DNA of 64,000 nt from Macrostomum lignano (Eukaryota). The DNA lies in assembly GCA_002269645.1 (NCBI GenBank), contig NIVC01000862.1, positions 310,001-374,000 on the forward strand, written 5' to 3'. The first letter of the stretch is position 1; each line of letters begins with the position of its first letter. This document shows, one piece after another, positions 6,761-32,650 of the stretch. A model generated the notes under the pieces. It worked only from the letters and a program-made list of their open reading frames with translations. It did no database searches and was not told where the DNA came from. Made by a program: the position numbers and the translations under genes.

Positions 6761-7529
6761 AGCAGGCAACTATGTTGGAAACTAGGCTAGAAGGTCTAGA
6801 TCTATTAGCATTAGGCCTATAATAACTCAAGTTTAAAAGCAGGTCAAAACAAGCAAAAAATGTCAATAGTTAGTGATTGACACAATAATATAGGCGGTAT
6901 GCCTAACACATGGAAGATACATGGGGGATACAAATTGCAATGACTTTGTAGTTTTATAAAATTGTAATGCTAATGAATATAGTAATACTAATAGTATATT
7001 GACAAATTTTGCTTAATAAAGTTGTCGAAGAGTCTAGTAATGATTCAGTAAGCTAATGATTCTTTGACATGCATGATGAATACATGTGTTGTGCTTGTGC
7101 AGTAAAAAGACACCGAATTCATTGAATGATCTGAGCAATGTGTATGCAGCATATTAAACACCCAAATTGAGTGCCGTACAACAAAATTTCACAAAAACAT
7201 TTCTGCGCTCTTTATTCAAAAAAGATATTTTCTCTCTGATGTCTTAAAAGTGTAAACATATTTATATATCCAAGCCAAACTATTTTTTTATTGAAAATAT
7301 AAATTAAAAAGCGTTAAACTATCTGCAGCATATTACGGAGGATTACCACGCCAAAATGAAAAGTAAAAAATAATGTTACTTTTTACCAATTAGCAGCATG
7401 TCAAATGTTCCTTAGCTGTTGTGGAAGTCCAAATGAGTCCTAAAAATTAAATATGTGAACCTTTTCTGTAAAAAATAGTCGGACCTTAAACCACAAAGGT
7501 CCAAAATGTCGCATACAGACCTTGTCTGG

Positions 7530-8960
7530 ACCAATAGAATTTACAGTGCAGTCTGCACAACTCGCATTTCTTCGTCCTCATCAGCTGGCACATGGAAATG
7601 AAGACATTTCCGCAACTGAGCTGACGAATTCAGCCGAATCTTGCTTCGATGTTGTCGGACTGGATCTTCCCCATCAGGACGTAGCTAAATCCACAGCGAT
7701 CCAGCAGGTACTGAACCAGTGCGGCCATGGCTCGGCGGGTTTGACGGACAGTCCCGAATGTGTACGCTGTCCTATATTGCATCTGTCACAAAAAGTTCAG
7801 GTTTTAATAATAAATAAAAGTAAAGTGAAAAATCTATTTCAAATAATAAAAGAGGCAATAACCTTTGAGTTCTCCCACGCATCCAAGGAAGATCGGACAG
7901 GATCGCGGGTGAGATCTATCTTGTGCTTTCCGATTGTGGTTGTTCGGACATTCAGCACATTCCACAACTTGTGACAAACATCCAGAACGAACGTTGTCTG
8001 TCGAAAGCCGTAGTGCTTGAGTGCGTTAATGGTGGACTCGTCGAAGAGAGCTACGGCAAGCTGGACATAGACTTTCTCTAGGCTTGTTGGGTGCAGAACG
8101 ACGTTGGTAAGCTTGTGTGCCATTTTCACTGGCTTGTCCTCTTCCAAATGATGATCCTCTTTGGCGATGATCGGCGGAAACTTCGGGCACACGAACTCCC
8201 TCTTGAACAGAAAATTGTTGTAGAGATTATTCATATTGTGCGTGGGATCGAAGATCAAAAACAACTTTTGTCTGTTGAATTGATTCGTCACGCTAAAGTC
8301 GAGTCTACTGGAGCACAAGAAGTGCGTATAAAAACGCCTGTTCGCCGCTGCATTGTCAACCCATATGGCCACGACGTTGAATCCAATGTTAAGCAACATC
8401 GGCGTGGCTCTCAGGTAGCACTGATGCAGTGTCTCAGCCTTCAGGTTGTTCATTTGGAAAATTCCGACCAAGTCGCGGTACTTTGTCATTGCCGATGAAG
8501 CACAGAGCAGTCTGGGCAACATTTCCCTCTTCTGTGAGACCATGCAATTCTCAACCGCTGTTCTCGACCCGCTTGCTGAGATAAATCTCATCCATCAGCA
8601 GAATTACGTTGGTCTCATAGGCCTGGAGTGTATCGTAGCGCAACTTTAGCTATTCGCAGTTGCCCAGTCCTGTAGTCGAGGTCATCCTACGCGTCACACG
8701 CCTCAGCGTTTTGATTGAAGGTAGAACTAAGGAATTTGTCCCAGAACACACTGACAAGCAGCTGAACTCACGGAGAACATAATATAGGAGAATGCCAGCA
8801 GTTCTGGTGAATATCGCCGAGCATGCTTGTCCAAATCCAGCAATTTCAGCTGCTCAATCAGAAAAGTGAGGCAAGCTGAGACTGCATCAGTCACGTGGTC
8901 TTGCTGTTGGAGCACTAGTAAACTGGACCGGAAAACAGAGCGGCTTCCCAAAAATCAAAA
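7530..8960 (-). pseudogene. P-element/THAP9-like transposase pseudogene with one intron (about 7784-7862)
   Basis: RRYSPELLAFSYIMF, VILLMDEIYL, VVAIWVDNAAANRRF, IFDPTHNMNNLYNN, KVYVQLAVALFDESTINAL, and after a GT..AG intron YVLMGKIQSDNIEARFG*IRQ (the catalytic Glu motif followed by a stop). Confidence 0.85.
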
Positions 8961-14040: not shown

Positions 14041-16447
14041 GCTTAGTTGTACGTAGAATGGTTGTTGACCCATTACCGAAACACGTCAGCAATTTTTTCA
14101 ACTGTCGGATGACGTCACAGGCAGATGCTGTCTCTCTTTTTCAACTCTCAACTTCAGTCTATGCTCACGAGCTATATATACGAGCGTAGCTCCTGAGTCC
14201 TGTATTTAATTTACACAGCCGATTACACAATAAAAATAAAGTTCTTTAAGACGTTTGTTATATTTCAACTGCGCATTGCTTACTACGCTACTAGTCTGTG
14301 AGTAGCAGTTTGCCGAGAGAATATCTAAATACATAGAATTAACATAATATTTCTGACTAAAACTACCGCTAAGTACGATATAGAACTTGGTTTGTGTATG
14401 TTAAAAGTTATTTTAAAATTTGCCCTGCATCTTTTGATGCAGTCGAGATATGTGTAACCTAAATAAAATGTTATTTTTTGTTTCGACAAAAGACAAGAGA
14501 AATGGATATTTTTCTTGTTTCTATGTTTTAGTTGTGGCTATCGATTGGGGTCTTGTGATGCTCTTTGGCTGCTTAAATCCGGTATATTAACATGTGTTTC
14601 ATCATACATACATACCAGTCTACGGAATCTACAGTCGGTAGACTCAATATAGATGGATAGATATAGGTATGACTCATCCTTGCTATTTTAATGGTTGATC
14701 AAACCAACTTGAACCTTTGCTTGCATTACCATTACGACTTGCGATTACGTATACTTGTGAAGTAAAAACTGATTGAATATGTGTCTACTACCGCAGCAGG
14801 GTTTTATTGCGTCGCAACTCGCAACTGGGCGTTCTATCTATCTAAATATCTAATATCGTAAAAATTTGTGCTATAATAGTCGCATTAATTACGTTTACGA
14901 TTGTTGAGTCCGCTTAATCAGCAAAACTCTCCAGTGCGTTTTACTAGGGGACTGCAGACCAGTACAGTATAGAACGGGTGTAGTAGAGGGGAACACAATT
15001 TTGTTTGGTTGACGCTATCTCTTGGGGAAGGGAGGCAAGGCAGACTTTTCAAATTTCGATCTGAAAGTTCCTGCCTATTCCCTACTATGATTTCTGATAA
15101 GCAGCTTAGGTCAGGTTGTTTTGGTGACACTGTAGGCCTGAAGGATGGGCAACTCTGTTTAGATTAGGTTTATTAGCAGTTGGACCTTTTCCCAGACCCC
15201 CTTTGTCGCAGCAGCACTTAGGCCAGTTCTATTTTTAGATCAGACCATAAGGGGCAAGAGGAGAGAAATCTTTTAAGTTCAATGGTCAATCTACACTAGA
15301 TGTACATGGTTCGGGGTGTCACGTCCCTTCTACCTCCTTGCCCCTCTCTGTACAAACTTATTATTTCGGCCCGTCCGATCCTGCCGCTACAAAAGTCAAA
15401 CCCCCACAAGCCCCAGCCAGCCAGTTAAGACTAGTAGCTCATTACATATTGTCCCTCCTGAGGATTCTGTACTTTAATATCGATTCTTATTCAATTTGCT
15501 TATCGAAGTTTAATCCTAATTAAATTTCAAGCTAATTGGTCTGACTCTAAGCAAGATTCTTACTAGAGCCCTCCTTAGAATCTGAGACACTGTAAGTTTC
15601 AACTATCTTATTCTTATCGATTTTACAGTCAATTTTTATTTTACTTGCGTTTACTATAAGTAGCTCGTAATGGCAGAAATAAAATCCTCACTGCAGTGTA
15701 CGGCGTACTAGTACAATATAGTGCACAACTGTACATGTATGACTTTGTAATTTGGTTGCTCTCCAAAGGAATGACCGGCGATCCCTGACTCTCGTGCAAT
15801 ATCATCTCGATTTACGAACGATGATCTGATCTCATTAATTGTATTCCTTAATTAGGTTTTTCCTCTCCACAAAATCTCATTTACTAAAAAGTGTCATATA
15901 TTTCTCGTGTACTGTACATGTCACGCAGTTCTCGCTTTGGTGCGTAGTTTAAACAAGCCCGTCCAGTCTGCTTTGATGGCGAGACTCTTCTCTACTGTCG
16001 GCAGTGTCGGGTCGAAATCGGAACGGAGAGAGGCTCGTTAATTCTGTCTTTTCTGTGTTAAATGGCATGCACTGGAATTTCCCATGTACATGTAATTGCA
16101 CTGCGTCGCAACTTAATCATGGGGCGCCAATTAAGCCATACATGCGCAACTGCTGGCCGACCTGGCCGATCTGGCCACCGTAAATTGTGGTGGACCAGGG
16201 GTAAGTCGCAAAAATGCCCAGCCTAAAGAATTCAGACGTATTACTAATTAGATGACGAGTAATTTAGCCCTTATTAGATAATATATAAAGACAGTTATAG
16301 ATACTCCTGCCGTTTACCCAAAATTGCGTTAGGGTTTCTTTTACAGGTAAGTCGCATTTTTGGTCAAAAGGTAAGTCGCATGGCTAGTGTAAATCAGGGG
16401 GGTTGCGCATGCATGAATTAAGCGCCCCCTAGCACATACCGGCACAG

Positions 16448-16995
16448 TAGATTGGCTGTCTCTTGGTGGGCGCCTGTCTCTTGGTTGGCGCCTGTCTCTT
16501 GGTTGGCGCCTGTCTCTTTATGCGCCTCTCTCGGTTGGCCCCCATGTCTCTTGGTGGGCGCCCCTGTCTCTTGGTATGCGCCCCTGACTCTTGGTTGGCG
16601 CCCCTGTCTCTTGGTATGCGCCCCTGACTCTTGGTTGGCGCCCCTGTCTCTTGGTGGGCGCCCCTGTCTCTTGGTATGCGCCCCTGACTCTTGTTTGGCG
16701 CCCCTGTCTCTTGGTTGGCGCCCCTGTCTCTTGGTATGCGCCCCTGACTCTTGGTTGGCGCCCCTGTCTCTTGGTATGCGCCCCTGACTCTTGGTTGGCG
16801 CCCCTGTCTCTTGGTGGGCGCCCCTGTCTCTTGGTATGCGCCCCTGACTCTTGTTTGGCGCCCCTGTCTCTTGGTTGGCGCCCCTGTCTCTTGGTGGGCG
16901 CCCCTGTCTCTTGGTATGCACCCCTGTCTCATGGTATTCACTCCTGTCTCTAAGTGAGCGCCCCTGTCTCTTGGTTGGCACCCCTACCCCTGTCT
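16448..16995. repeat. 20-bp minisatellite (cccctgtctcttggttggcg)
   Basis: About 25 tandem copies. The same family occurs in the opposite orientation at 31025-31315. Confidence 0.92.
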
Positions 16996-17269
16996 CTTAG
17001 GCCCGATGGATGCCACGTCCAAGAGGGTTGAGCCCTTAACGTTGAGCGTCCATCTTGTTGCCTCTTTCGACTTTTGTTCAGTTTTTGGTGGAGTGAAATT
17101 TCGGTGTGGTCGAGGGGAGACGGGGGCGGACCCCTTCCCCCACCCCCCATTTACATTCGCTACTGAGTATCAGTAGTAGGAAAGTGGTACCCTCTACCGC
17201 CATCGCACGGGATTGGCCGGGGCACCCGGCCAATGAGGGGAGAGGGCGCCCCGAAGACGCCCACCCCGA

Positions 17270-17650
17270 CGCCAAACCCACCCCGACCCCCAAACCCACC
17301 CCGACCCCAAACCCACCACCCTCCACGCACCCAATCCCGACCCCAAACCCACGCACCCACCCCGACCCCAAACCAGGCCCCCTCCTGTCCTACACCCCTC
17401 CTGTCCTGCACCCCGTGCATCCCATACCAAGACCCCCTCCTGTCCTGCACCCCGTGCATCCCATACCAAGACCCCCTCCTGTCCTGCACCCCATGCATCC
17501 CATACCAAGACCCCCTCCTGTCCTACACCCCTCCTGTCCTGCACCCCGTGCATCCCATACCAAGACCCCCTCCTGTCCTGCACCCCATGCATCCCATACC
17601 AAGGCCCCCTCCTATCCTACGCCTTGCCCCATCCCATGTAGCAAGGTCCT
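17270..17650. repeat. C-rich subterminal tandem repeats (cccgaccccaaaccca and a 39-bp unit accccctcctgtcctgcaccccgtgcatcccataccaag); mirrored at 29645-30030
   Basis: Directly visible. The complementary strand is G-run rich and could form G-quadruplexes. Confidence 0.9.
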
Positions 17651-17904
17651 TCTATCCTGTACCCTAACCAAAACCAATTCCCCCTCCTAATTCCTAAACC
17701 CAAGTCTTATTACCTGTCTCACTTACCGCCTTTAAAGCTAGCCAAGGCAAAACCCTCATTCCATGCTTTGGTTGTACTGTATCTTGCTGTGGCGGGTACA
17801 GCGTGAGGTCGTTAGACCTAGAACGCTACTTCTTGGCGGCCAGAGGGCCGCAAGAAGGTCCCGCCACCTCCTGTTACGTTGATGGCTGAGACTTTGTTAA
17901 GGCC

Positions 17905-18170
17905 CGAGTTCCTGCGAAAGGGCTGCTGTGTGGGGGTTGGATTTGGGGTTCGGATTAGTTATTGCTATGGAACAGGAGCTGGTTTCTAAATGGCTGAGTG
18001 GTCCCCGGAAGGGCTCCTGATTTGCCGAGAGTTCCTGCGAGAGGGCTGTTGTGTGGGGTTGGATTCGGGGTTCGGATTGGTTATTGCTATGGAGCGGGGA
18101 TCTGGTGTTACTTACCAACTCTCGTCGTATATAATCTCGCACACAGCCGGAAGGAAAGCTCACAGTGAAC
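17905..18170 (+). promoter_or_regulatory. Putative promoter of the PC4-like gene
   Basis: Two roughly 70-bp direct repeats (about 17905-17980 and 18028-18102), the second containing an inverted CCAAT (ggattggtt). TATATAA at 18128-18134, Inr-like tcacagt at 18160-18166, and AAAATG start context at 18171-18176. Confidence 0.5.
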
Positions 18171-18173
18171 AAA

Positions 18174-18884
18174 ATGAACTTCAAGACATTATCGAACAGA
18201 TTTCGAATCGGCGTCAGGTCGCACTCGAAGTGCATCAGCATCAGAAAGTGGTACAAATTTGATGAAGAGTATCGACCAGGTCTGCCTGGCATGGAGCTCA
18301 CCGTCCACCAGTTTTGCCACTTGGGCAGCCTGAAGGAACGACTGGAAGAGTTTGCAAGAAAGTGTATCGATGCGCAATGCCTTCTGGGTGGCAACAGGCA
18401 AGTGGTTGTGCAAAATGGCGTAATCACACTCTGGCGCCTTCCAACTGTACTCGGACCGCCGGTGCACCTAAGGCACGCCTTACCGCTTCCTACAAAACTT
18501 TGGCGCGAAGTCTGGGCTCAAAAGCATTGGGTCCTAGACAAAATTGACAAGCGAGAACCTCCAGTCAAGCCACCGATCGGCGATCCATGGTGGATGGGAT
18601 ACCACCCTACGGAGCCTGAAGAGTGTGCAGCATGGGCAGCAAGGCTTACACTCGACCAACTTATACAAGTACCTGACAGGCAGCCGGCAGAGTGGGACGA
18701 CCACTGGGAGGCTTTCCAGGCAGTTCAGGCTGAATTTAGAAAGAGATTTGCATCCGAAACTCTGGAAGAGCCATCAACAGCTGAGAAGAACCAACAGCCT
18801 TCATGCCACCAGCCACCAATGAAGCGACGCGCAATGCGTGAAGCGAAACTGGTCATTTCGTCAAGTAACTTTTTTTTAATATAG
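18174..18884 (+). CDS. PC4/Sub1 (transcriptional coactivator p15)-like ssDNA-binding domain protein carried by the Maverick
   Basis: LSNRFRIGVRSHSKCISIRKWYKFDEEYRPGLPGMELTVHQFCHLGSLKERLEEFARK aligns by eye to the PC4 core ([58 protein letters not shown]), followed by a Trp/Pro-rich C-terminal region. ATG at 18174; the ORF track starts at GTG 18165. Confidence 0.75.
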   Translation: MNFKTLSNRFRIGVRSHSKCISIRKWYKFDEEYRPGLPGMELTVHQFCHLGSLKERLEEFARKCIDAQCLLGGNRQVVVQNGVITLWRLPTVLGPPVHLRHALPLPTKLWREVWAQKHWVLDKIDKREPPVKPPIGDPWWMGYHPTEPEECAAWAARLTLDQLIQVPDRQPAEWDDHWEAFQAVQAEFRKRFASETLEEPSTAEKNQQPSCHQPPMKRRAMREAKLVISSSNFFLI

Positions 18885-19300
18885 TTTTGAACCATAGTAC
18901 TGATCATGCACTGTTGTATATACTGCTTTGTCAATACTGGCTATAATATTGCCCCATGATGCTTTAATTTCTTGCGATAATACCTGTTTTGTAAATACAC
19001 GTGACGGGCCTTAATACTGCCCTTCCATTCTTCATAAACTTTTTTTGTGCTAATAGGAGCTTTTAACATGTAATTTTATGCTTTGCAATCCATGGACCTG
19101 CCAATAAAATAAACAAAAAAAACGTTTCATTTTTGTAAGCATTGTTGCACAAACATTGTTGCATTCGCGTTTATTTTTTCTTATCTTTTGTACACAAAAA
19201 ATACAGAAGTAAAGTTATAGGAAAAATATTATTATTATTATTATTATTATTACTCTGTGCATAGGCAGATCTCACTACTACTGTTATGCCGTAGAGGAGC

Positions 19301-19899
19301 TCAGTCAGAGTCCAGCAAAGTAGGTTCGGATGCTTGGTCTGCATGCAAAATGCGGGAGAGGGCATCAGCTGCAGTCTGAGCCTCAACCACGCTGCGAGCA
19401 CCAGCTATTATACAGCGATATGAATGAAACAAAATCAACTTTACAGAAGCAGTAAACTCGAGCACAAGTCCGTTAAACATTTCCGGCTCGTAGGTGGCCC
19501 GATGCGGCCATTTAGACTTGACTTCCCCCAACCGGAGTGGATGCCGACCCGCGGGAAAGGCGTCACAGAGGTAATAGTCTTGATGCGAATCTGGGGCAGA
19601 CTGGTCAATCGCAAGAAGTCTGCACACAGCTTCACAATCTTCTCTGTCTCTGCGAGAGCTTCCTCCATGCTTTTGGCTCCACAGACAGACACTTGTCCGG
19701 TCGGATACACCAGCGCGGTTACTCGATGCTGCCCGCTCTTCATCACCACAGCCAGTGTTCGAGGATGAACCAGGCGATGGCGGATTGTGTGATACTGAGG
19801 CAGATGAAGAGTCAGGAAATTCGCTAGTTGAGGCAGACCCACCCGGGTCGCCAGGTCGGCTCCTGTCACGATGTTTGTCACGCGAATTGTTGCGACCAT
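19301..19899 (-). CDS. Divergent TATA-binding protein (TBP)-like gene; 199 aa once a 1-nt deletion at about 19561 is restored from the right arm
   Basis: Both TBP repeats are recognisable: IRVTNIVTGADL, TALVYPTGQVSVCGAKSMEEA, HPLRL, ATYEPEMFNGLVLEF, VKLILFHSYRCIIAGARS. The right-arm copy reads through the site in frame. Confidence 0.9.
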
Positions 19900-20392
19900 C
19901 TTTAGACAATCGAGAGAAACGCCAGTGCCTGCTGCAGATCGCTACTTTTATAGACCCGTAGCCGCGAGGCCGCAGCCAATCAGCGTACAGCGCCACCTTG
20001 GCCAGGGCGCAGGGTAGCACGTACTTCGAGGCACTCGGAAAGGCCAGGTGTGCGAGGTCGTAGACAGGCTGTAGCAGCAGACGCGACAGGAACTGGCACT
20101 TGACATCCCCCTTGCTGAATATCGGGCCTTGCAAGTGGGAGATATCGCTCCAGAGACAAGAGTAGGGTCGGAACCCACTCCTGTCCCAGTCTAGACCGTG
20201 CCGCTTATTGGTGAGCCAGTAGCAGGTTCGTCGCTGTCCTCGATCAAAGAGCTCAAAGCTGTGCGGCGGTCGGTAGCAATAGTAATGAGCCGTCGTTTGA
20301 CCGCATGCAAACTCAACCCATGCAATTTCCTTAATCACAAAGTCCTCTGTTTTGTAGAGGTGCGGAAATCCTTCAAAATCAATGACAATCAT
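19512..20392 (-). CDS. DEDD/RNase H-fold exonuclease-like Maverick protein
   Basis: MIVIDFEGF..FVIKEIA..YRPP..WLT..HGLDW..SKGDVK..CALAKV..DW. The ATG overlaps the upstream stop (ATGA). The 3' end is uncertain because the frame runs on over the TBP N-terminal half to a stop at 19512, inferred from the right arm. Confidence 0.7.
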
Positions 20393-20985
20393 CTTGGCCA
20401 CTTGATCCACTTGCCGTATCCTTTCTGAGACTGAGTCTTCTTATAGCCTTGCAGTCGAGGTTTTTTAGGACTGGACTTTTCTTCCCGAGGCTTTTCCAGC
20501 AATTTTGTAGTGTTCAGACCAACTGCAGACAGAGGCACGTGGTTTTCTTGAAGACACGTAACAAACTCATTAATCCCATTCGGTGGCTGAAGGTACTTAG
20601 AGTACGTATCTTTAACTATGAAATTCAGCAGGTCCACGATATTTGAGTTGTACAACGGTTTACCATTGACAGAAACTTCATACGTATCATCTATGCTAAT
20701 CGACTTGCACTTTACGGTTATGAAGCTAATCAATGCCTGCAGACGATGATGCCATTTCTGATTCACCGTCAGATATAAAACCTCCTTCCACTGCGGTTCT
20801 TTGTGAATTACTGGAGGCTGTTCTTGGGTCGCACTTGCCTGCAGCTGCTGCACGCAACGCTCGTCCCTAATCTTGCGCAACTGTTTTTCCGCCTCTAGCT
20901 CGGGTTCACAGACTGTCTCCATGCCCCTCTGATTCACAAGTGCCTCATACTGCAACCGGGGTACCAGTATCATTTCCTTGTACAT
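20389..20985 (-). CDS. Conserved Maverick hypothetical protein
   Basis: KEMILVP...EVSVNGKPLYNSNIVDLL..PPNGINEFVTCLQENHVPLSAVG, a pattern I recognise from Maverick core blocks. Intact 198-aa ORF. Confidence 0.7.
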   Translation of the reverse strand: MYKEMILVPRLQYEALVNQRGMETVCEPELEAEKQLRKIRDERCVQQLQASATQEQPPVIHKEPQWKEVLYLTVNQKWHHRLQALISFITVKCKSISIDDTYEVSVNGKPLYNSNIVDLLNFIVKDTYSKYLQPPNGINEFVTCLQENHVPLSAVGLNTTKLLEKPREEKSSPKKPRLQGYKKTQSQKGYGKWIKWPR

Positions 20986-21277
20986 GTCTTTTTATATAGG
21001 TGAGAATCAGAGGAAGACAACGAAGGATATGCGGGTGTGAGAGATTACGCCGAGCCTCTTTCACACTTTTGCTTTGTGCAACAAGCCGGAGAGTATTTCG
21101 ATATCGCCTGAGTCTCCGCTTCAAGCTATCTTCACAGCCAACTTTTCCTGCTAGTAAGTTGATAATACACTCGACCAAAAAGCAAATGGTGCTTTTATTT
21201 GCATAGGTAAGTATGCAGCGACGCAAGGATATAGTGCCCTCACAAAAGACAGTTATTAGTGCAATGTGTTTATCCAT
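20945..21277 (-). CDS. Small basic conserved Maverick protein
   Basis: RRCIL..A....ICFLVECIINLLAGKV..LKRRLRRYRNTLR; located directly downstream of the ATPase. Confidence 0.7.
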   Translation of the reverse strand: MDKHIALITVFCEGTISLRRCILTYANKSTICFLVECIINLLAGKVGCEDSLKRRLRRYRNTLRLVAQSKSVKEARRNLSHPHILRCLPLILTYIKRHVQGNDTGTPVAV

Positions 21278-21307
21278 GTTTAACTCAGTGCAGATACTGA
21301 GCCATTC

Positions 21308-21966
21308 TTATAGATAAACTCGCTGCGGGGCCTCATCGGGGAGAAAATTGGCTCTCAGGCGCAGTTCATGGGGTGAAGCGGGGTGAAAATCAAGCAGCAG
21401 ATAGCGCTGATCTCCATCTCGCACCAATCGATCCATCAGTTCTACTAGCAGAGTGCGCCGTTTGGGAAAGCATTGCTGACTTAAAGCTTGGACCGCAGAG
21501 GTGTCTCTGGGGTTGTTGAACAACACATGTAGGTGCAATTTATGCTAATTGTGCGCCACTCTCTGCCTTTGAAAAATAGATTTTGCGTGATGAGAATGAC
21601 AAAGCAGGGCTTGTGGTGGGCCTCACGGGTGAACAGATGTCGTAGCTCTCGACTTGCAGCTGCTTCATCCAGTAAATCGTCAATCACAATCAGGTCATGG
21701 GGCTGCAGATCCAAATTCGATAATCCTTCACATACTTGCACTCCTAGCCGCCGCAGAGTCGCGTGGAGTTCCGGCTGCGGGCATCCGTGATACCAAATCA
21801 TCCGCTTGGGAGGTTGGTCGAACAGAAGCAGTCGTTGGGACAGCAACCGCAAACAGAATGTTGATTTTCCCGCTCGAGAAGGGCCCGAAACCATCATGCA
21901 GCCTCCCATCCGCAGTCTGGAATCAAACACCTTGCAACTGATTTTTGAGTCTGAGTATGATTGCAT
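21308..21966 (-). CDS. A32/FtsK-like genome-packaging ATPase (1-nt frameshift near 21526)
   Basis: Walker A GPSRAGKST, Walker B LIVIDD, VILITQNLF, and after the shift VLFNNPRD and YLLLDFHP. Confidence 0.93.
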
Positions 21967-22396
21967 CGTTTTGAGCCACAGCTGCCGGGTGCAAAACCTT
22001 GATGAACAAGGCATTATATGACATTCTCTTATGTAGTCGATGGATCAAGTAAAAAATGCAATACCAGCCGCATAGAGTTGACGAACTGGGCTGAACAGGG
22101 ACCGTATTCCATTGCAGCACCATCCGCGTCGGTTTAGTTTTCTTTAACCAGCTCTTCATATTTTTACTCAAGCCTCCCAAAGAGTTGAAAATTTCACAAT
22201 GCACTTTACTTGTTACTACTCCAGCAATCCAGTGACCGCACTCATCATTCCATGGCTCATACAAAATGAAACAGCAGGGTCGGCAGGTTGAATCGAAAAA
22301 TGGTGTCACTGTTCCAACTGTAAAAATTCCGCAATAGGCATCCCACACAGCTGTGGGGCAGCGAGAAATGAACGCTTCCAACTCTTCGGAATTCAT
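21923..22396 (-). CDS. Adenain-like cysteine protease
   Basis: GHWIA, EIFNSLG, PVQPSSSTLCGWYCIFYL. Confidence 0.9.
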   Translation of the reverse strand: MNSEELEAFISRCPTAVWDAYCGIFTVGTVTPFFDSTCRPCCFILYEPWNDECGHWIAGVVTSKVHCEIFNSLGGLSKNMKSWLKKTKPTRMVLQWNTVPVQPSSSTLCGWYCIFYLIHRLHKRMSYNALFIKVLHPAAVAQNDAIILRLKNQLQGV

Positions 22397-23663
22397 GCTC
22401 TGCGATAATCCAGCAGCACATCCCTCTCTTTAGTGATTTCCATGCATGAATCATACACGCACAAGCAGATGAGTGTGACTGGCTGTGCGAGAGCGTTGGA
22501 AAAGCGAATATCCAGTCGTAGTTGACCCTGCCTATGACCAAACCAGCTGCCTACTTCATCGCCACTTGGACTAAGGTCAAACGCAAGCAGATAGGCACTA
22601 TCTCGATATTCATCAAAGCTCATGCAATAGTTTCCACCGAGACTGCGGGCAAACTGCAAAAATTCGGATGAGTGCTGCTGCTGTGGTTCTATGGGCTGCC
22701 CAGTAATTGGCTGTCCATTGACAAACAGGCTTAAACTATTCAATCCAAATGCTTGGAACCAAAACGGGTTGTGGTGCAGAGATCCATTGAAAGCTGTCTG
22801 GCTGACCATGCCAAGGAGCACAAATTTTGGCAGCTGACCATGCGTGATTGAATCGAGACTCTTGTTTCTTGTCCCAACAGAAAATGTGAATGTCTGAAGC
22901 TCTCTTCTATCAAAGTGGTAGAGAGCATTACGCTGTGAGAGCCCCTGTTCATGTGCGAAGCCACTGTTGGGTTTACTCGGAGACGCCTCAAAAGCAGAAT
23001 AGCATTGTCGACTTCAATACGATATTGAACTCCATTATTGGGTACCATCAACGAAAAAGCGCTGCAATGCCGGGTCAATTTGACCTGCAGGCTGATTTGG
23101 TTTAGCAGATACTGCCGGATTGAGAAAATGTCTGAAAACAACGGGCCGGCATATTGCACAACAGCAGAAGCCTCATGCAATCTCGCACGATTTGTGAATC
23201 CATGATTTTGCTCCCCAATGGTGTCACTCTCTCCAGCGGTGTCTGGATAATAACCTGCGGCCGCCAGTTCTTGAAGCTGGTTGGCATTGCTGCTGGTCAG
23301 CACTTGAAGCATTGCTCGATATGGGTAGAGCTGGTCCCCACCACTCACAACCCGCTGGTTGAGTTTTACAGTGACATCACGAAACAGGCTGGCAAGCGGG
23401 AGATTCGATAGTCCGACATGGGCATCATCTTCATTAGTCAGCTCTGCATTGTTTATCACACGAGTTATCCGGCAAGTGACTTGCAGCACTGTGGCGTGCA
23501 GATCGGTGTAGTCCTCAGAGGAGGCATGGCAGTCGAATTCAATCGGTGCATCAGGAGTCGTGAGACTGCCGATGGGATGAAAGTCCATGAAGTGAGACCT
23601 ATCCACTCCAATTTCATGCGTCATTGGCTCAAACAGGTTGAGCCGTGGATTTGTCCGATACAT
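22393..23663 (-). CDS. Double jelly-roll major capsid protein (1-nt frameshift near 22943)
   Basis: LNLFEP..PIEF..DYTDL..LASLFRDVTVKLN..YPYRA..YYPDTAG..GQLPK..AFNGSLHHNPF..AFDLSP..GQLRLDIRFSNAL..DVLLDY. Restoring one G in the GGGG run gives RGLSQRNALYHFDRRE in frame. Confidence 0.92.
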
Positions 23664-23933
23664 TATGAGAGTGAATCGAGCACTCGGTTGACTGTTTTTA
23701 ACGGTATCTTGCGCTTTTTTTTTGGGCACTGGCTTGCTCTTCTTTGGTTTGATTTTTGGCGTCTTCTTATGTTTTCTTTTTTTCTGCGATGGAGGTGGTA
23801 TGCGGGAAAGGAGAACTGCATTTTCATGAGTCTCAGGGGGCAGTCGAGATAGCAGCGATGTGGGATATCCGTGCCCATGAGGAAGTTTGAAGCAACTGCC
23901 TCGATAAAACTCGGTCACTTGTCGAATGTCCAT
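23664..23933 (-). CDS. Lys-rich putative core (DNA-condensing) protein, in frame with the major capsid protein
   Basis: YRGSCFKLPHGHG motif and a QKKRKHKKTPKIKPKKSKPVPKKK tail. No stop before the MCP start. Confidence 0.45.
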
Positions 23934-24697
23934 GACTCACGCAGCTCAAAAGTCAAGACTGTGGGCCCAAAGAGTAATCGAATGGATTCGATGCAGTTGA
24001 TCGGTCGTAGCCGTATTTGCATGTGTGTTAAGCGGTGGTTTGCTGCTATTTGGAAGAACAGCTTATTCTTATAGATGAGTTCCGACCGGTGACCCTGCAA
24101 AAGACCACCAATATTCAAAGTCTGCAGTGCTGGAGTAAACTGATTTCCAATACAGCGCGGGCTAATCTGATCGCACTCAACAAGCAGCAAATCTGTATTC
24201 CAGGCCGGGTTCATGCCAGGTCGTTCAAAGCAACCTGCCTGCTCGCTATAGGTTGTCTGCTCAGCACCAAAAATTTTCCCCAGCTGGCTGTTTTCTGGAA
24301 AGATAAATCTCCCACAGATCCCAGCCATTTGATAGTATACATAATGGCTAACTGAATCAAGGGTAAATTTAATTAGATGCACATTTATAGGTGTTTCGCC
24401 AATTCCAGACTCATCAAAATCTTTTACAATCAGTAAAGCATTTACTGCATCAATCAGCTCATTCAAGTCATTGTAGCGCCCAGCTGGAATTTCAGCACAT
24501 TGCATTGAACCCTCAAGCTGATAAAATAGCGACAACGGATGAGGGATGGTGTAGATGCAGTTGATAAAACTGATTCCAAGCAGACCCAACTCATAATCCA
24601 AAGCAAAATCCAGCAGCACAGGATGCAGCAGCTCAGCAGTAAAGTTGGCCGGGTCATCATCGGGGCCGGACATTACCTGAAATCTTTGCCTTTTCAT
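23915..24697 (-). CDS. Minor capsid (penton-like) protein
   Basis: NFTAELLHPVLL..YELGL..EIPAGRY..LNELIDAVN..LLVECDQI..GPTVLTFELR; lies between the integrase and MCP. Confidence 0.8.
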   Translation of the reverse strand: MKRQRFQVMSGPDDDPANFTAELLHPVLLDFALDYELGLLGISFINCIYTIPHPLSLFYQLEGSMQCAEIPAGRYNDLNELIDAVNALLIVKDFDESGIGETPINVHLIKFTLDSVSHYVYYQMAGICGRFIFPENSQLGKIFGAEQTTYSEQAGCFERPGMNPAWNTDLLLVECDQISPRCIGNQFTPALQTLNIGGLLQGHRSELIYKNKLFFQIAANHRLTHMQIRLRPINCIESIRLLFGPTVLTFELRESWTFDK

Positions 24698-25670
24698 ATT
24701 TTTCTTAAGTCTTTTTCGTCAATCCAACTGGGTTTTTCTGAATCGCGCCACTGAACCAAATACCGAATCTTTCCACTCTTCAGCTTCTTAATGTTGAGAA
24801 CCTTGTCGATGATCCACAGCTTCTTGTTTCCAGTCACTTGCTGCATTTCCGGCTCGTAAAACTTGCCTTCCAACTCTTCTCCTCGGGCATCGATCAGAGT
24901 GTACATGTATGGATAATGCTTGGGGTGGAGGGACTTGACTTCAAATACTTCCTCACTCCATCCCCTTGTGTATCCCTTGGTGAATGGGTTGGTCGGATTG
25001 CGAAGAGAGATTCGCACCATCATTCCTGCCTTGAACTTTGGTCTGGAGACCTTTTCACGAGTCTCAGGAAGCTTCCCATCGTAGAGCCGGTGCCAAATTT
25101 CCATCTCGTTTGACTTGTCGACATCAACTGGTCGGCTTTGAATACTCCGATGAATACTATGGTTGAAGGCCTTCACTAGGGCTGAAGCACATCGGTCCAG
25201 GTTAATGTTGACTTGTGACGGAAGTACCGCCACATTCGGGATTTCAGTGTGCGGTTCCATCTCTCAATGACTGCGCATTTCTGGTCACTACTTGATGTGA
25301 ATGCATGAATTTTGTGGTTTACGCAGAGGGCTCGGAACTGGGTGTTGCAAAACTCTTTTCCGCGGTCGGTCCGAACTGCTCGTGGGCATCCAGGGTGAGC
25401 TCGATTTAGGATCGCTTCGAATCCGGCTGCAACCTCCTCGGCTGTCTTGCGGCGCACCGGCTGAGCCCAGGCAAACTTGCTGAGCACATCGATGCAGCAT
25501 AAAATGTATCGCATGCCGCCATTGTACTTGGCGAACGGCAGCATTTCAACCAGGTCCAGTTCCCACTGGTCATCCATGCCCCGCACCACAATCGGTGCTC
25601 GACGAAAGTTTTTGCGTTTATCTCTATGCAGTGTGTAGACATCTTGGTCTTGTAGCCACGTTTTTACCTT
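24694..25670 (-). CDS. Retroviral-type (rve) integrase with C-terminal chromodomain-like region; N-terminus truncated; 1-nt frameshift near 25180
   Basis: KVKTWLQDQDVYTLH, DQWELDL, RYILCCIDVLSKFAWA, RTDRGKEF, AVIERWNRTLK, YNHSIHRSI and IDKVL..RYLVQW..SW. An in-frame TAG lies just upstream of KVKTW. Confidence 0.92.
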
Positions 25671-25724
25671 TAGTGTGAAAACTGGAAATTGCTAGCAACT
25701 AAAAACCTAAGCTGGAATTTTCTA

Positions 25725-26766
25725 GAAAATCATTGGTTTAGGAGTATATCGTATATACATACCTGCCCTACACTAAACTTGGGCCCGTGCTGTTTGTGCA
25801 ACTCTCGATTTAATGCCTGATAGCCGCCATAGCTGCCCGGCCTACTGCAGTCAAAATAAATACCTGGCAGAATTTTGGAAATTGCCTTTTTCTTTTTCAT
25901 TTTACCAAATTTCTAGTACCTATCATTTTCTTATGCCAAACACCTGGCTTGAAAAAAAACTACCCACCCCGACCCATTTCTGCGGATTTAGCGTTTCTAG
26001 CCTCTGTTGTGCACGAAAAATCATGCATTTTTGCATAAAATACATACATTTCAATGGGAATTTTTACCCGAATGTGTGCACGAAAAACCTCGACACTTTG
26101 CATACTTTTTAACACTGTGCACGAAAACTTGCATACTTGTGCACAAAATAAATGTTGTTCAATAGGGATTTTTACTCGAACCTGTGCATGAAAATTGACG
26201 CATGTTGTCAAAAAAGTCACGTCATATTGCGCACTTTTAATCACTGTGCACGAAAACTTACATACTCGTGTACAAAATACAAACATTTCAATGAGAATTT
26301 TAACCCAGAGATGTGCACAAAAATGACTCATTATGGTAAAAATATTAATGTGAAAGAACAATTTTCTCTCCTGCAGTGTATCAAATATCATTAAGTAAAG
26401 GATGGATTTATTATTATTCAAAATATAGTATATTCGCATTAAATTCACATGCACATAGTTAAAAATTAAAGATATGTGAAAAGAATGTTATTGTGAGAAA
26501 AAGAGCTTGCTAGTGTCCAGATCGCACTGGCCGACACTGGCTTGTCATCTTGAGAACGTGCACCAGAACTAAATCCCGGTTGAAAATCTTCTGGTCGCGG
26601 AATGCTGACTTGGCCACAGGCTTTGAATTGACCAGTCGGTAGCTCACTTGCTTGCGAACATTCTCTAGGGTCTACAGGGAGTTGTTTAGCGGCCCGTTGT
26701 CTTTCTTGAACTCATTCTTGGCCTTTTGCACGACGCTCCATGCGGTAGATAATAAACAGCGGTCGA
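25725..26766. other. Unique AT-rich spacer at the centre of the palindrome; probably foreign transposon-derived DNA
   Basis: About three degenerate repeats of roughly 135 bp rich in tgtgcacgaaaa (25995-26330), plus a stop-containing coding-like fragment on the minus strand (26520-26760). No pPolB motifs. Confidence 0.55.
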
Positions 26767-26820
26767 TAGAAAATTCCAGCTTAGGTTTTTAGTTGCTAGC
26801 AATTTCCAGTTTTCACACTA

Positions 26821-27448
26821 AAGGTAAAAACGTGGCTACAAGACCAAGATGTCTACACACTGCATAGAGATAAACGCAAAAACTTTCGTCGAGCACCGAT
26901 TGTGGTGCGGGGCATGGATGACCAGTGGGAACTGGACCTGGTTGAAATGCTGCCGTTCGCCAAGTACAATGGCGGCATGCGATACATTTTATGCTGCATC
27001 GATGTGCTCAGCAAGTTTGCCTGGGCTCAGCCGGTGCGCCGCAAGACAGCCGAGGAGGTTGCAGCCGGATTCGAAGCGATCCTAAATCGAGCTCACCCTG
27101 GATGCCCACGAGCAGTTCGGACCGACCGCGGAAAAGAGTTTTGCAACACCCAGTTCCGAGCCCTCTGCGTAAACCACAAAATTCATGCATTCACATCAAG
27201 TAGTGACCAGAAATGCGCAGTCATTGAGAGATGGAACCGCACACTGAAATCCCGAATGTGGCGGTACTTCCGTCACAAGTCAACATTAACCTGGACCGAT
27301 GTGCTTCAGCCCCTAGTGAAGGCCTACAACCATAGTATTCATCGGAGTATTCAAAGCCGACCAGTTGATGTCGACAAGTCAAACGAGATGGAAATTTGGC
27401 ACCGGCTTTACGATGGGAAGCTTCCTGAGACTCGTGAAAAGGTCTCCA
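26821..27448 (+). pseudogene. Second, inverted, 3'-truncated integrase copy
   Basis: 26767-27448 is the reverse complement of 25044-25724. It reads through the left-copy frameshift (DVLQPLVKAYNH) and breaks after EKVS. Confidence 0.92.
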
Positions 27449-27452
27449 CCGG

Positions 27453-27995
27453 GTGGGTCTGCCACAACTAGCGAATTTCCTGACTCTTCATCTGCCTCAG
27501 TATCACACAATCCGCCATCGCCTGGTTCATCCTCGAACACTGGCTGTGGTGATGAAGAGCGGGCAGCATCGAGTAACCGCGCTGGTGTATCCGACCGGGC
27601 AAGTGTCTGTCTGTGGAGCCAAAAGCATGGAGGAAGCTCTCGCAGAGACAGAGAAGATTGTGAAGCTGTGTACAGACTTCTTGCGATTGACCAGTCTGCC
27701 CCAGATTCGCATCAAGACTATTACCTCTGTGACGACCTTTCCCGCGGGTCGGCATCCACTCCGGTTGGGGGAAGTCAAGTCTAAATGGCCGCATCGGGCC
27801 ACCTACGAGCCGGAAATGTTTAACGGACTTGTGCTCGAGTTTACTGCTTCTGTAAAGTTGATTTTGTTTCATTCATATCGCTGTATAATAGCTGGTGCTC
27901 GCAGCGTGGTTGAGGCTCAGACTGCAGCTGATGCCCTCTCCCGCATTTTGCATGCAGACCAAGCATCCGAACCTACTTTGCTGGACTCTGACTGA
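27453..27995 (+). CDS. TBP-like gene, second copy (frame intact, first 18 or so codons missing)
   Basis: Continuous 180-aa frame from GLPQLANF to EPTLLDSD containing both TBP repeats except the first strand. Confidence 0.85.
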   Translation: MGLPQLANFLTLHLPQYHTIRHRLVHPRTLAVVMKSGQHRVTALVYPTGQVSVCGAKSMEEALAETEKIVKLCTDFLRLTSLPQIRIKTITSVTTFPAGRHPLRLGEVKSKWPHRATYEPEMFNGLVLEFTASVKLILFHSYRCIIAGARSVVEAQTAADALSRILHADQASEPTLLDSD

Positions 27996-28427
27996 GCTCC
28001 TCTACGGCATAACAGTAGTAGTGAGATCTGCCTATGCACAGAGTAATAATAATAATAATAATAATAATATTTTTCCTATAACTTTACTTCTGTATTTTTT
28101 GTGTACAAAAGATAAGAAAAAATAAACGCGAATGCAACAATGTTTGTGCAACAATGCTTACAAAAATGAAACGTTTTTTTTGTTTATTTTATTGGCAGGT
28201 CCATGGATTGCAAAGCATAAAATTACATGTTAAAAGCTCCTATTAGCACAAAAAAAGTTTATGAAGAATGGAAGGGCAGTATTAAGGCCCGTCACGTGTA
28301 TTTACAAAACAGGTATTATCGCAAGAAATTAAAGCATCATGGGGCAATATTATAGCCAGTATTGACAAAGCAGTATATACAACAGTGCATGATCAGTACT
28401 ATGGTTCAAAACTATATTAAAAAAAAG

Positions 28428-29123
28428 TTACTTGACGAAATGACCAGTTGTCGCTTCACGCATTGCGCGTCGCTTCATTGGTGGCTGGTGGCATGAAGGC
28501 TGTTGGTTCTTCTCAGCTGTTGATGGCTCTTCCAGAGTTTCGGATGCAAATCTCTTTCTAAATTCAGCCTGAACTGCCTGGAAAGCCTCCCAGTGGTCGT
28601 CCCACTCTGCCGGCTGCCTGTCAGGTACTTGTATAAGTTGGTCGAGTGTAAGCCTTGCTGCCCATGCTGCACACTCTTCAGGCTCCGTAGGGTGGTATCC
28701 CATCCACCATGGATCGCCGATCGGTGGCTTGACTGGAGGTTCTCGCTTGTCAATTTTGTCTAGGACCCAATGCTTTTGAGCCCAGACTTCGCGCCAAAGT
28801 TTTGTAGGAAGCGGTAAGGCGTGCCTTAGGTGCACCGGCGGTCCGAGTACAGTTGGAAGGCGCCAGAGTGTGATTACGCCATTTTGCACAACCACTTGCC
28901 TGTTGCCACCCAGAAGGCATTGCGCATCGATACACTTTCTTGCAAACTCTTCCAGTCGTTCCTTCAGGCTGCCCAAGTGGCAAAACTGGTGGACGGTGAG
29001 CTCCATGCCAGGCAGACCTGGTCGATACTCTTCATCAAATTTGTACCACTTTCTGATGCTGATGCACTTCGAGTGCGACCTGACGCCGATTCGAAATCTG
29101 TTCGATAATGTCTTGAAGTTCAT
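28428..29123 (-). CDS. PC4-like gene, second copy
   Basis: Identical to the left copy except for the extreme C-terminus (ATTGHFVK* versus AKLVISSSNFFLI*), caused by a 1-nt indel. Confidence 0.75.
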   Translation of the reverse strand: MNFKTLSNRFRIGVRSHSKCISIRKWYKFDEEYRPGLPGMELTVHQFCHLGSLKERLEEFARKCIDAQCLLGGNRQVVVQNGVITLWRLPTVLGPPVHLRHALPLPTKLWREVWAQKHWVLDKIDKREPPVKPPIGDPWWMGYHPTEPEECAAWAARLTLDQLIQVPDRQPAEWDDHWEAFQAVQAEFRKRFASETLEEPSTAEKNQQPSCHQPPMKRRAMREATTGHFVK

Positions 29124-30360
29124 TTTGTTCACTGTGAGCTTTCCTTCCGGCTGTGTGCGAGATTATATACGACGAGAGTTGGTAAGTAACACCAGATCCC
29201 GCTCCATAGCAATAACCAATCCGAACCCCGAATCCAACCCCACACAACAGCCCTCTCGCAGGAACTCTCGGCAAATCAGGAGCCCTTCCGGGGACCACTC
29301 AGCCATTTAGAAACCAGCTCCTGTTCCATAGCAATAACTAATCCGAACCCCAAATCCAACCCCCACACAGCAGCCCTTTCGCAGGAACTCGGGCCTTAAC
29401 AAAGTCTCAGCCATCAACGTAACAGGAGGTGGCGGGACCTTCTTGCAGCCCTCTGGCCGCCAAGAAGTAGCGTTCTAGGTCTAACGACCTCACGCTGTAC
29501 CCGCCACAGCAAGATACAGTACAACCAAAGCATGGAATGAGGGTTTTGCCTTGGCTAGCTTTAAAGGCGGTAAGTGAGACAGGTAATAAGACTTGGGTTT
29601 AGGAATTAGGAGGGGGAATTGGTTTTGGTTAGGGTACAGGATAGAAAGACCTTGCTACATGGAATGGGGCAAGGCGTAGGATAGGAGGGGGCCTTGGTAT
29701 GGGATGCATGGGGTGCAGGACAGGAGGGGGTCTTGGTATGGGATGCACGGGGTGCAGGACAGGAGGGGTGTAGGACAGGAGGGGGTCTTGGTATGGGATG
29801 CATGGGGTGCAGGACAGGAGGGGGTCTTGGTATGGGATGCACGGGGTGCAGGACAGGAGGGGGTCTTGGTATGGGATGCACGGGGTGCAGGACAGGAGGG
29901 GTGTAGGACAGGAGGGGGCCTGGTTTGGGGTCGGGGGTGGGTGCGTGGGTTTGGGGTCGGGATTGGGTGCGTGGAGGGTGGTGGGTTTGGGGTCGGGGTG
30001 GGTTTGGGGGTCGGGGTGGGTTTGGCGTCGGGGTGGGCGTCTTCGGGGCGCCCTCTCCCCTCATTGGCCGGGTGCCCCGGCCAATCCCGTGCGATGGCGG
30101 TAGAGGGTACCACTTTCCTACTACTAGTATCTTACCATTAGCGTTTGATTCATTTGATGTCTGTCTGCAGATTCTCTTCTATTAACTTTCGTAAGAAATC
30201 TCAGAACTTTTTTTTTTTTCCATTGTTTTTCTCCCTGTATAAGTCTAGTTTATTTCCGAATATCAAACTTTGTACTTTTCCTGGTCTTCAAATGGTTTAC
30301 TTACCTTATTATTTGAACTCTGCTCCATTTTGTGCTTTTACTTATTGTAGATAACATCTC

Positions 30361-32650
30361 ATGATGGACCTGACATCATCATCGTGGCTGCAGAACAAAA
30401 GTGAGTAATTGATTATGGTTATTTATGCCTTTCTACTCAGCATACCATTCAGCCCCTAATTCGATTTAATTGGTGAATTGGTCTAAAATTTGCCCTGACA
30501 CACAGTAAGAAGCGATTCCCCCCCATAAAACTGGTTTATACGATCTCCGATAGTCCACCTCTAGAATCTCCCATAATCCACATCTAGAAACTCTCATAAT
30601 CCGTCTCTAGAATCTCCCATAATCCGCCTCTAGAATCTCTCATAATCCACCTCTAGAATCTCCCATAATCCACCTGTAGAATCTCCTATAATCCGCCTCT
30701 AGAATCTCCATAATCCACCTCTAGAATCTCCCATAATCCACCTCTAGAATCTCCCATAATCCACCTCTAGAATCTCCCATAATGCACCCGTAGAATCTCC
30801 CATAACCAAGCCACATTCGTTGACATAGCCATTTCCATGCTAATCGCGGTTGTAATTGTTCAATCTGTCAATCAAGGCGATACAGATCTGCCGTTTCCCG
30901 TCATGTCTTCTGATCCGAAGGCTCAACAAGAACTGCTTGATTGCAACTACGCAAAACGATTTAGCCTTGACGAGGCCAGATCTGGTCGAAGTAAGTTGCT
31001 AAACACTTTGATACACCAAGGGATAGGGGCACCCACCAAAGAGACAGTGGCGCCCACCAAGAGACAGGAGCGCCAACCAAGAGACAGTGGCGCCCACCAA
31101 GAGGCAGGGGCGCCAACCAAGAGACAGGGGCGCCAACAAAGAGACAGTAGCGCCAACAAAGAGACAGGAGCGCCAACAAAGAGACAGGAGCGCCAACAAA
31201 GGGACAGGAGCGCCAACAAAGAGACAGGAGCGCCAACAAAGAGACAGGAGCGCCAACAAAGAGACAGGAGCGCCAACAAAGAGACAGGGGGGCCAACAAA
31301 GAGACAGGGGGGCGTATAGATGTGTATCTTAAAAAATTTTGATAAACTGATAACTTTTCAAAGACATTGTTTACAATTTTTTAGCCGACAGAAAAATCCG
31401 TGTTTACTGCGACGGCTGTTTCGATTTGTTTCACTTCGGTCACATGAGAGTGCTGCTGCAAGCCAAGTACCTGCTGCCCAATGCCTATCTTATTGCCGGA
31501 GGTCAGTACAAAATCTGTGCTCAAACCTTAGAAAATTTTAACATTTTTTCAACATCTCTATAAAAGTGTCCTAACTACTCTACTACAAGTAGAAATATAA
31601 AAGTATCTGTAAATATTCGTTTTACGGCTCCGTTCTATGTAAATTTGTTTTCAGTAGCAACCGACAGCCAGGTGCGGCAGTGCAAGGGTGTCAGCCCAAT
31701 TATGACAAGGCAAGAACGGCTGGCCTCCGTGGCCATGCTGTCCTTCGTCGATGAGCTGCTTGACGACCCGCCCATGCTGCCAACTCCAGAGTTTTGCAAC
31801 GGGTATAAGGTGAGACAGGCTGACAGATTACTAGCTAAGAGGTGTATTGAAATGACCTCTAATTCAGTGACAATATCTAACCCTATTTCCTGTTCATAAT
31901 CGACACTAGGCACCCTGATGATAATGCAATTCTTATCCACTAAATAGGAAAATAGCCTAGCTAATTCCCCTGAAGAGAATGCCCTAATCCCCTAAAGATA
32001 ATCCCCTAATCCCTGAAAAGAATCCCCTAATCATCTGAAGAGAATCCCCCTAATTCCCGAGGAGAATCCCCTTAATCCCCCAAAAATTTCTCTTATACCC
32101 GAAGATAATCCCCTAATCCCCGAAAAGAATTCCCCTAATAATCTGAAAATAATCCCCTCTAATCCCCCTAATCCCCGAAGAGAATTCCCCTCATCTCCTG
32201 AAGAGAATTCCCCTAATACCCTGAAGATAATTTCTCTAACCACTTTAAGAGAATTAGCCTCCTAATCCTGCGAAGAGAATCCCCCTAATCCCCTGAGGTG
32301 AATTTCTCTAATCCCTGAAAAGAATTCTCCTAATCCGACTAATAGAATTCCCCTAGTCCTCTGAAGAGAATTCCCCTAATTCTCCAGAGCGAGAATATCA
32401 CGCAGCCGCCTTCAAGGGTCTAGATCATAGATAAATGCGCTCGTACATTTTTCAGATCGACTTCGTGGCTCACGACGCCATCCCGTACATCTCATGCCTG
32501 CCACCTGAAGAGACCTACGAGTGGGCCAAACGGGCCGGAATGTTCCTGGAAACGAAACGAACCGACAGCATTTCGACAACGAACCTGATTGATCGAATAG
32601 TTCGTCGGCGCGACGAAATCGCTAATTGTCGTCCTCAAAAGCACCAGTAG
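30361..32650 (+). CDS. PCYT1: Choline-phosphate cytidylyltransferase (CCT)-like; exons 30361-30400, 30886-30990, 31385-31501, 31655-31809, 32456-32650
   Basis: Spliced product contains [16 protein letters not shown] (HxGH), IDFVAHD and [17 protein letters not shown]. All four introns are GT-AG with compatible phases (1,1,1,0). Confidence 0.9.
30555..30805. repeat. 23-bp minisatellite (ctagaatctcccataatccacct) in PCYT1 intron 1
   Basis: About 11 tandem copies. Confidence 0.9.
31025..31315. repeat. 20-bp minisatellite (gcgccaacaaagagacagga) in PCYT1 intron 2
   Basis: Reverse-complement relative of the 16448-16995 array. Confidence 0.9.
31965..32390. repeat. Degenerate gaagagaattcccctaat repeats in PCYT1 intron 4
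   Basis: Directly visible. Confidence 0.8.

Follow-up and report, generated by a model that had tools for sequence, protein, structure and literature searches.

A conserved TATA-binding protein in Maverick/Polinton elements of Macrostomum lignano and a candidate cognate promoter box

In the genome of Macrostomum lignano, two Maverick clades have a gene for a TATA-binding protein (TBP) as a regular part of their elements. The protein is real and conserved, it comes with a candidate cognate promoter box, YWTAAGAA, and a mechanism that would connect the two is plausible. Together, the TBP and this unusual TATA-like box suggest that a Maverick turns on its genes with the RNA polymerase of the host. 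The gene was found in a stretch of 64,000 nucleotides of contig NIVC01000862.1, which we refer to as the window, where a sequence-only reading had proposed a TBP encoded by a Maverick/Polinton (Table 1).

Table 1. Features of the Maverick/Polinton derivative in the window (positions are those of the window unless a locus is named)
Feature	Position	Strand	Remarks
Rearranged Maverick/Polinton derivative, 12,954 bp	17172..30125		AGTAGT ends; 6-bp TSD AGTATC at 17166-17171 and 30126-30131
Left arm	17172..19846		inverted copy of 27449-30125, 99.6% identical; contains terminal repeat, PC4 gene and most of TBP
PC4-domain gene	18174..18884	+	convergent with TBP; preceded by TATATAAT (18128-18135); a further copy lies in the right arm
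TBP-like gene, left copy	19301..19899	-	ATG at 19899, stop ending at 19301; frame broken near 19557-19560
DEDD-motif/Maelstrom-like gene	19304..20392	-	frame continues over TBP N-lobe and, via the break, into C-lobe
DEDD/N-lobe overlap	19515-19899	-	also L027:4731-5059 and in L030, L033, L035, L047-L052
Canonical TATAAAAG box	19945..19952	-	53 nt before TBP ATG; 19/19 sister copies
Box TATAAGAA	20438..20445	-	53 nt upstream of the DEDD-like gene
Conserved 198-aa ORF, no family	20389..20985	-
Conserved 110-aa ORF	20945..21277	-	behind TATAAGAA (21305-21312)
P-loop packaging-type ATPase	21481..21966	-	frame shorter than in sister copies; behind CATAAGAG (22026-22033)
Cysteine protease	21923..22396	-	C48 E 0.009; homologue matches adenovirus protease C5 above cut-off
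Major capsid protein, two frames	22393..23663	-	behind CATAAGAA (23764-23771)
Probable minor capsid protein	23915..24697	-	assigned by position and resemblance; behind CTTAAGAA (24702-24709)
rve integrase with chromodomain, two frames	24694..25691	-	Pfam rve E 4e-13, Chromo E 6e-4
Type B DNA polymerase (PolB) remnant, short	26609..26728	-	profile match E 1e-4; E 9e-14 in sister copy L022
Integrase fragment, inverted duplicate	26767-27448
TBP-like gene, right-arm copy	27449..27995	+	single open frame; promoter and first ~17 codons missing

The TBP gene and the elements that carry it

The gene product is a two-lobed TBP, and its identity stands far above chance. The TBP motifs quoted by the sequence-only reading are all present on the minus strand from 19899 to 19301, and the assignment holds by profile as well as by structure prediction. 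Pfam PF00352 matches both repeats of the right-arm copy with E 3e-17 and 62.6 bits, against a curated cut-off of 22.9, and scores five natural copies at 68-92 bits. Among the PDB sequence matches of the right-arm copy 35 of 36 are TBPs (best E 1.7e-10), and the AlphaFold model of a natural full-length sister copy (pLDDT 86.3) returns TBPs as all of its best Foldseek matches, with E 1e-12 and TM 0.68-0.70 to solved TBPs. The element protein has 187-199 aa and is TBP core throughout.

The sequence-only reading obtained an intact 199-aa frame by combining the two arms. At 19301..19899 the left copy is split between two ORFs (TNIV..YPTG in 19441-19941, YEPE..LFH in 19301-20440); natural 199-aa frames were found elsewhere, and 16 of the 19 sister copies that were fetched are full and open. 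The right-arm copy is fused to an integrase fragment. Both TBP copies in the window are thus broken, inside a 13-kb Maverick derivative, and the window's own copy, being broken, performs none of the promoter-recognition role proposed below. Because the two arms differ so little (over 2.68 kb, by six substitutions and four gaps of one base), the break in the TBP frame is possibly a change after insertion or an assembly error.

The element itself has the terminal inverted repeats ending in AGTAGT and the 6-bp TSD that characterize Mavericks according to the available part of PMC8097293. Since its integrase, capsid, ATPase and TBP genes are broken or short and its PolB is a remnant, the copy in the window is a defective derivative and was inserted in that form. 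The assignments of its genes differ in strength: a homologue of the major capsid protein matches DJR-like Atlas clusters (score 0.98, PF21738 on 24% of members), the ATPase has a P-loop and AAA-type Pfam matches that all lie below cut-off, and the probable minor capsid protein has no profile match. The Pox_A32 profile has no match anywhere in the genome. The PC4 gene matches PF02229 with E 6.5e-5, which is below cut-off in the window, and above cut-off in family E. The DEDD-like gene has no Pfam match, and its protein (19882-20392, minus strand) weakly resembles Maelstrom, a piRNA-pathway domain, with an Atlas PF13017 score of 0.87 that we regard as a lead only. PolB is reduced to a remnant in the window's element and in sister L022, and full PF03175 frames stand beside TBP in the second clade. 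Sister element L021 carries a tyrosine-phosphatase-family gene (6794-7933, PF13350 E 6e-8), which is missing from the window's element, and an internal inversion. Mutually inverted arrays of a 20-nt tandem repeat flank the element in the window (16430-16990 and 31015-31316), and further along, between 42000 and 64000, about half of the sequence (10,825 bases) is tandem repeat.

With the Mavericks, Polintons and adintoviruses of the literature (PMC8097293, PMC8502044) these elements share the AGTAGT ends, the 6-bp TSD, an rve-chromo integrase, ATPase, protease, DJR-like capsid and intronless genes, furthermore PolB, which is intact in the second clade, and the swapping of modules between PolB and the virion genes. 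TBP, PC4 and the Maelstrom-like gene lie outside the eight genes that make up the core in vertebrate Mavericks. The proposal that TBP is undescribed in animal Mavericks held in so far as no description was found in the literature searched; subscription papers and Repbase reports lay outside that search, and an earlier mention is possible. The main texts of PMC8097293, PMC10748475, PMC11131425 and PMC10120064 contain neither TBP nor TATA, and the same applies to one supplement file each of PMC10748475 and PMC11131425. However, TBP is already labelled on maps of non-animal relatives: in the accessible part of Starrett et al. 2021, it occurs only as a legend label on maps of non-animal MELD viruses (Fig. 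5, in the preprint also Fig. 6), with no analysis.

TBP recurs in the genome as a Maverick gene, adjoining capsid, ATPase and integrase genes across copies, a point that the sequence-only reading had named as a check. At least 150 matches were obtained (150 of 197 candidates were scored), and among those listed about 44 rows are 72-100% identical to the query and about 106 are 35-41% identical. The order of DEDD-like gene, TBP and convergent PC4 is the same in 19/19 sister loci. In the second clade, ATPase, DEDD-like gene and TBP follow each other as in the window in all four families fetched, and three of the four have PC4 and integrase upstream and a convergent PolB. In the family of L027 (G000), TBP matches are accompanied by 18 PolB matches that are full-length and 100% identical, which points to recent amplification.

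The copies are under purifying selection. Pooled dN/dS over ten families is 0.16 in each lobe at saturated dS (45 pairs for the N-lobe, of which 32 were usable for the C-lobe), and pN/pS among nine sister copies is 0.39. In a tree of 45 rows that were picked by hand, and with a bootstrap that had not settled, the nine element-type rows are united in a single clade with 100/98 support; its branch is long, and host TBP and TRF2 lie outside it. The host's TRF2-like protein branches apart from the element TBPs at 100/99. An earlier tree was a quick tree only, for which 24 partial rows of 160 were dropped and the remaining 136 thinned to 105. Identity of the element TBP is 25% to host TBP and 20% to the host TRF2-like protein, and it neither groups with TRF2/TBPL1 nor has the YEPE-HP stirrup. 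In the AU test, a clade with host TBP was not rejected (p 0.129), and an ancient origin from the TBP of the host lineage is compatible with this result. The host genes for TBP and the TRF2-like protein are each present in three near-identical copies with intronless cores (L037-L039, L043-L045).

Beyond the M. lignano genome the family has few members: a single-sequence query gave two matches and an alignment eleven, eight of them close. Among 1.84 billion representatives, eight matches reached E < 1e-30; several of these are chimeric gene models and one is a tandem cellular TBP. The named relatives are M. lignano proteins, one of them almost letter for letter the TBP of family L027; further relatives are P0002 and P0003, at 60-63% identity, and P0009. 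Phage records gave no match, nor did metagenomes with the element TBP alignment as query. Viral contigs gave none with four of five queries, and the fifth found one weak locus (E 4e-4) that carries no Maverick gene. With other short TBPs as queries, 41 metagenome loci were obtained, mostly cellular TBPs, with no Maverick gene nearby. At two loci, L053 and L054, the short TBP has as neighbors a DEDD-looking ORF and one that looks like PC4, which neither pairwise (E 0.78) nor profile tests linked to the element genes. These two and P0040, P0049, P0064, P0091, P0102 and P0142 are short TBPs that have a His after the C-lobe aromatic residue in common with the element TBPs. In the 45-row tree, these short TBPs group with the element clade with no more than 59/53 support. 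The element TBP might be part of a wider family of short TBPs in other elements that bear F/Y-P-x-G and F-H-x-G signatures.

Residues of the protein and the TATA-like box

The two-lobed saddle fold is common to the element protein, cellular TBP (PF00352) and TRF2, and so are the first Asn, the Phe pair of the C-lobe and the EPE stirrup, residues that are invariant in 17/17 sequences. Of the canonical four Phe and two Asn, the element proteins have two Phe, one Tyr and one Asn; the remaining Phe position, the first of the N-lobe, carries Trp in the second clade and has lost its aromatic residue in the window's clade. For the window's clade this is the pattern that had been read from the letters: the C-lobe retains its Phe pair and EPE, the N-lobe has lost its first Phe and has Tyr in place of its second, and the second Asn is replaced by Thr. 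The element protein differs from its cellular counterparts by the lack of an N-terminal extension and by five replacements that occur in all 17 sequences, for which we assume the yeast numbering as mapped through host TBP: Phe116 to Tyr, Thr124 to Cys, Asn159 to Thr, Pro191 to Asn, Ser or Thr, and Val203 to Lys. N9, Y65, T108, F142, K154 and F158 are new invariant residues at DNA-facing positions. In the part of PMC1636458 that was available, the C-lobe contacts the TATA box in its 5′ half, Pro191 limits position 1 to T and V203 lies near position 2. The residues expected to read TATA positions 1-2 are hence replaced in every element TBP (17/17).

The two stirrup glutamates are described in the accessible sections of PMC7221094 as the TFIIB contacts, which most viral TBPs have lost, pairing with a viral TFIIB instead. 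By sequence, the element proteins keep both glutamates in 17/17 cases. None of the scanned element ORFs matches TFIIB, and neither a TFIIB nor an RNA polymerase gene was seen in the 13-20 kb elements. TBPs of giant DNA viruses are likewise virus-encoded and two-lobed (PMC7221094, in part), and the best fold match of the element TBP in BFVD has E 3e-12 at 17% identity; according to the same sections, however, the giant-virus proteins mostly lack the TFIIB glutamates that are invariant here, and come with a viral TFIIB.

In four families, 24 of 40 gene starts have the box YWTAAGAA 35-110 nt upstream. This placement matches that of a TATA box, and the motif is the top 7-mer and 8-mer in an unbiased ranking. 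The upstream intervals, 3.9% of positions, hold 24 of its 29 matches, with a binomial P of 1.5e-29 that is inflated because the motif was picked post hoc, the families are related and the second Met was taken for two genes; counted independently, the box precedes 7 of 11 gene kinds. Density is 7.0/kb in the upstream intervals versus 0.07/kb in flanking DNA (18 matches in 243,000 positions), and four of the five matches outside the intervals fall at a single homologous place, 140-150 nt before a small ORF. Relative to the coding sequence of the upstream genes, the box occurs in two different frames, and it is therefore a signal at the level of DNA. It has a G at position 6, and according to the part of PMC1636458 available, G at positions 6-7 is never selected by wild-type TBP. 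Positions 1-2 are mostly CT, which holds for 17/20 strict sites of the second clade versus 1/4 in the window's clade, where the box is mostly TATAAGAA or CATAAGA. In none of the four families does a box precede the protease gene or the 198-aa ORF. Because the box also precedes the integrase, the DEDD-like gene and, in the other clade, TBP, no clear division into early and late genes is apparent. In 4/4 families a canonical TATATAA stands upstream of PC4, and the TBP promoter carries TATAAAAG in the window's clade and the variant box in the other. Contigs from four runs, which are RNA by our guess, cover genes and some intergenic DNA alike and carry no information on strand or start.

L095-L097 (G000:C4948) represent a separate Maverick family with a dUTPase and a different gene order. 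No TBP match was found in the 12 kb from the end of its PolB to the terminus, and its contigs are not among the matches listed in four TBP searches. Six of eight genes of the L095 family have TATAAGCA/TAAGCA 28-95 nt upstream; five of ten TAAGCA matches fall in upstream intervals (P 4e-5), and YWTAAGA was not found in the central 8 kb. Since this family has a related box but no detectable TBP, the TAAG box does not require the element TBP. The 5′ half of the L095 box is TATA in 4/7 sites, as opposed to CTTA in 17/20 sites of the TBP-carrying second clade. From these sequences we infer that a host factor may read the box in the L095 family, and the element protein where CTTA prevails.

Possible roles of the element TBP

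With a probability of roughly 0.55, we favor the reading that the element TBP is the Maverick's own TATA-reading factor, which would recognize YWTAAGAA and recruit host TFIIB and Pol II. Host TBP would start the genes with a canonical TATA box, that is PC4 in all families and TBP itself in the window's clade. The element TBP would then bind the minor groove of the variant box, and the EPE stirrup that it has kept would recruit host TFIIB and hence Pol II, such that the integrase, capsid, ATPase and other genes would be driven from promoters lying within upstream coding sequence. Purifying selection, the fixed position after the DEDD-like gene, the residue pattern and the box with its placement all argue in favor of this. 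The related box in a family without detectable TBP argues against it, as do, in the window's clade, CT in only 1/4 sites and the missing aromatic residue at the first N-lobe Phe.

The TAAG box might instead be a general Maverick promoter that is read otherwise, by host TBP or TRF2 or, as an initiator, by the machinery of a helper virus, and the element TBP would then boost expression without selectivity while evading host regulators such as Mot1, NC2 or TAF1. The L095 box speaks for this, and so does WTAAG, which we take to be the late initiator of baculoviruses. Furthermore, the basic patch of N-lobe helix 2, a surface assigned to host regulators in the portion of PMC7221094 at hand, is partly acidic in the window's clade. 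We nevertheless consider a general promoter rather unlikely, given that in 4/7 sites the L095 box starts with a TATA that would be legible to host TBP, unlike the CTTA of the second clade, and that homologous starts are never closer than 35 nt to the box. Less probable still is a decoy role, which the sequence-only reading had also suggested: the protein would sequester host TFIIB (or Brf1) and so damp host transcription or antiviral genes. Invariant TFIIB glutamates next to several changed DNA-facing residues would suit a decoy, as would the absence of the first N-lobe Phe in the window's clade; yet the DNA-facing positions hold new invariant residues and do not drift, dN/dS is the same in both lobes, and the TBP-TFIIB contact is normally formed on DNA.

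Finally, the gene could be a neutral, recently captured retrocopy of host TBP that rides in the element. It is intronless, though the host TBP core is so likewise, the copy in the window is broken, and the AU test does not reject a clade with host TBP. Nevertheless, we regard such a retrocopy as highly improbable: identity to host TBP is low, the element TBPs share a long, well supported branch, synteny is the same in clades that are only about 35% identical, and dN/dS is 0.16 at saturated dS. The ratio and the 45-row tree refute both "recent" and "neutral", so that the case which the sequence-only reading had named as fatal to its proposal is ruled out.

The favored reading of the element TBP as a promoter-reading factor has a parallel in herpesviruses. 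The TBP mimics of beta- and gammaherpesviruses (KSHV ORF24, EBV BcRF1, HCMV UL87) read TATTWAA about 30 bp before the start, according to the available part of PMC6541308, and the element would share with them the proposed logic of a viral TBP acting on a variant TATA box of viral genes with host Pol II. The mimics differ in being large proteins that bind Pol II directly in a six-protein viral complex, whereas the element TBP is a bare core of 190 aa that keeps the contact residues for host TFIIB. At 187-199 aa, it thus lacks the hallmarks of a herpesvirus-type pre-initiation complex (large mimic, Pol II-binding domain, five partners).

An overlapping frame, exchanged C-lobes and implications

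The DEDD-like frame is open across the whole TBP N-lobe in 11/11 families, over 106-128 codons; under synonymous redraw, the chance of this is 0.001-0.02 in the four families tested. The peptide of the overlapping frame is of low complexity and unconserved.

The TBP genes of L027, L033, L047, L048, L051 and L052 are mosaics, with an N-lobe dS of 0.03-0.15 and a C-lobe dS that is above 1 or saturated. The switch point is the lobe junction, and the frames are open in all mosaics examined. In the second clade, pairs with a dS of only about 0.1 across the DEDD core and the N-lobe reach saturation in the C-lobe, so that C-lobes have been swapped between families. PolB is only 47-52% identical where the capsids are 85-91% identical, and the C-lobes were probably exchanged together with the PolB side. 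We had also considered that a near-invariant N-lobe in the second clade mirrors the invariant 3′ half of the box, and dropped this idea, since the two lobes have the same dN/dS and differ in dS. We tentatively entertain the broader idea that in some animal Polintoviruses a one-gene TBP might act as a minimal orthogonal transcription switch, whose DNA face would be rewired to a non-host TATA box (CTTAAGAA) while the socket for host TFIIB is kept, and whose C-lobes would be exchanged between families along with the polymerase side.

According to the available text of PMC8097293, Mavericks encode no RNA polymerase and their particles have not been seen. With a conserved TBP and a defined box, the activation of Maverick virion genes can be tested by means of a single small protein and a handful of oligonucleotides. 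Provided that the protein is selective, it would rank as the smallest viral switch of basal transcription, in parallel to herpesvirus late transcription, and a natural TBP of altered specificity that is compatible with host TFIIB. Whichever factor reads it, the box is a usable promoter signature for the annotation of Mavericks.
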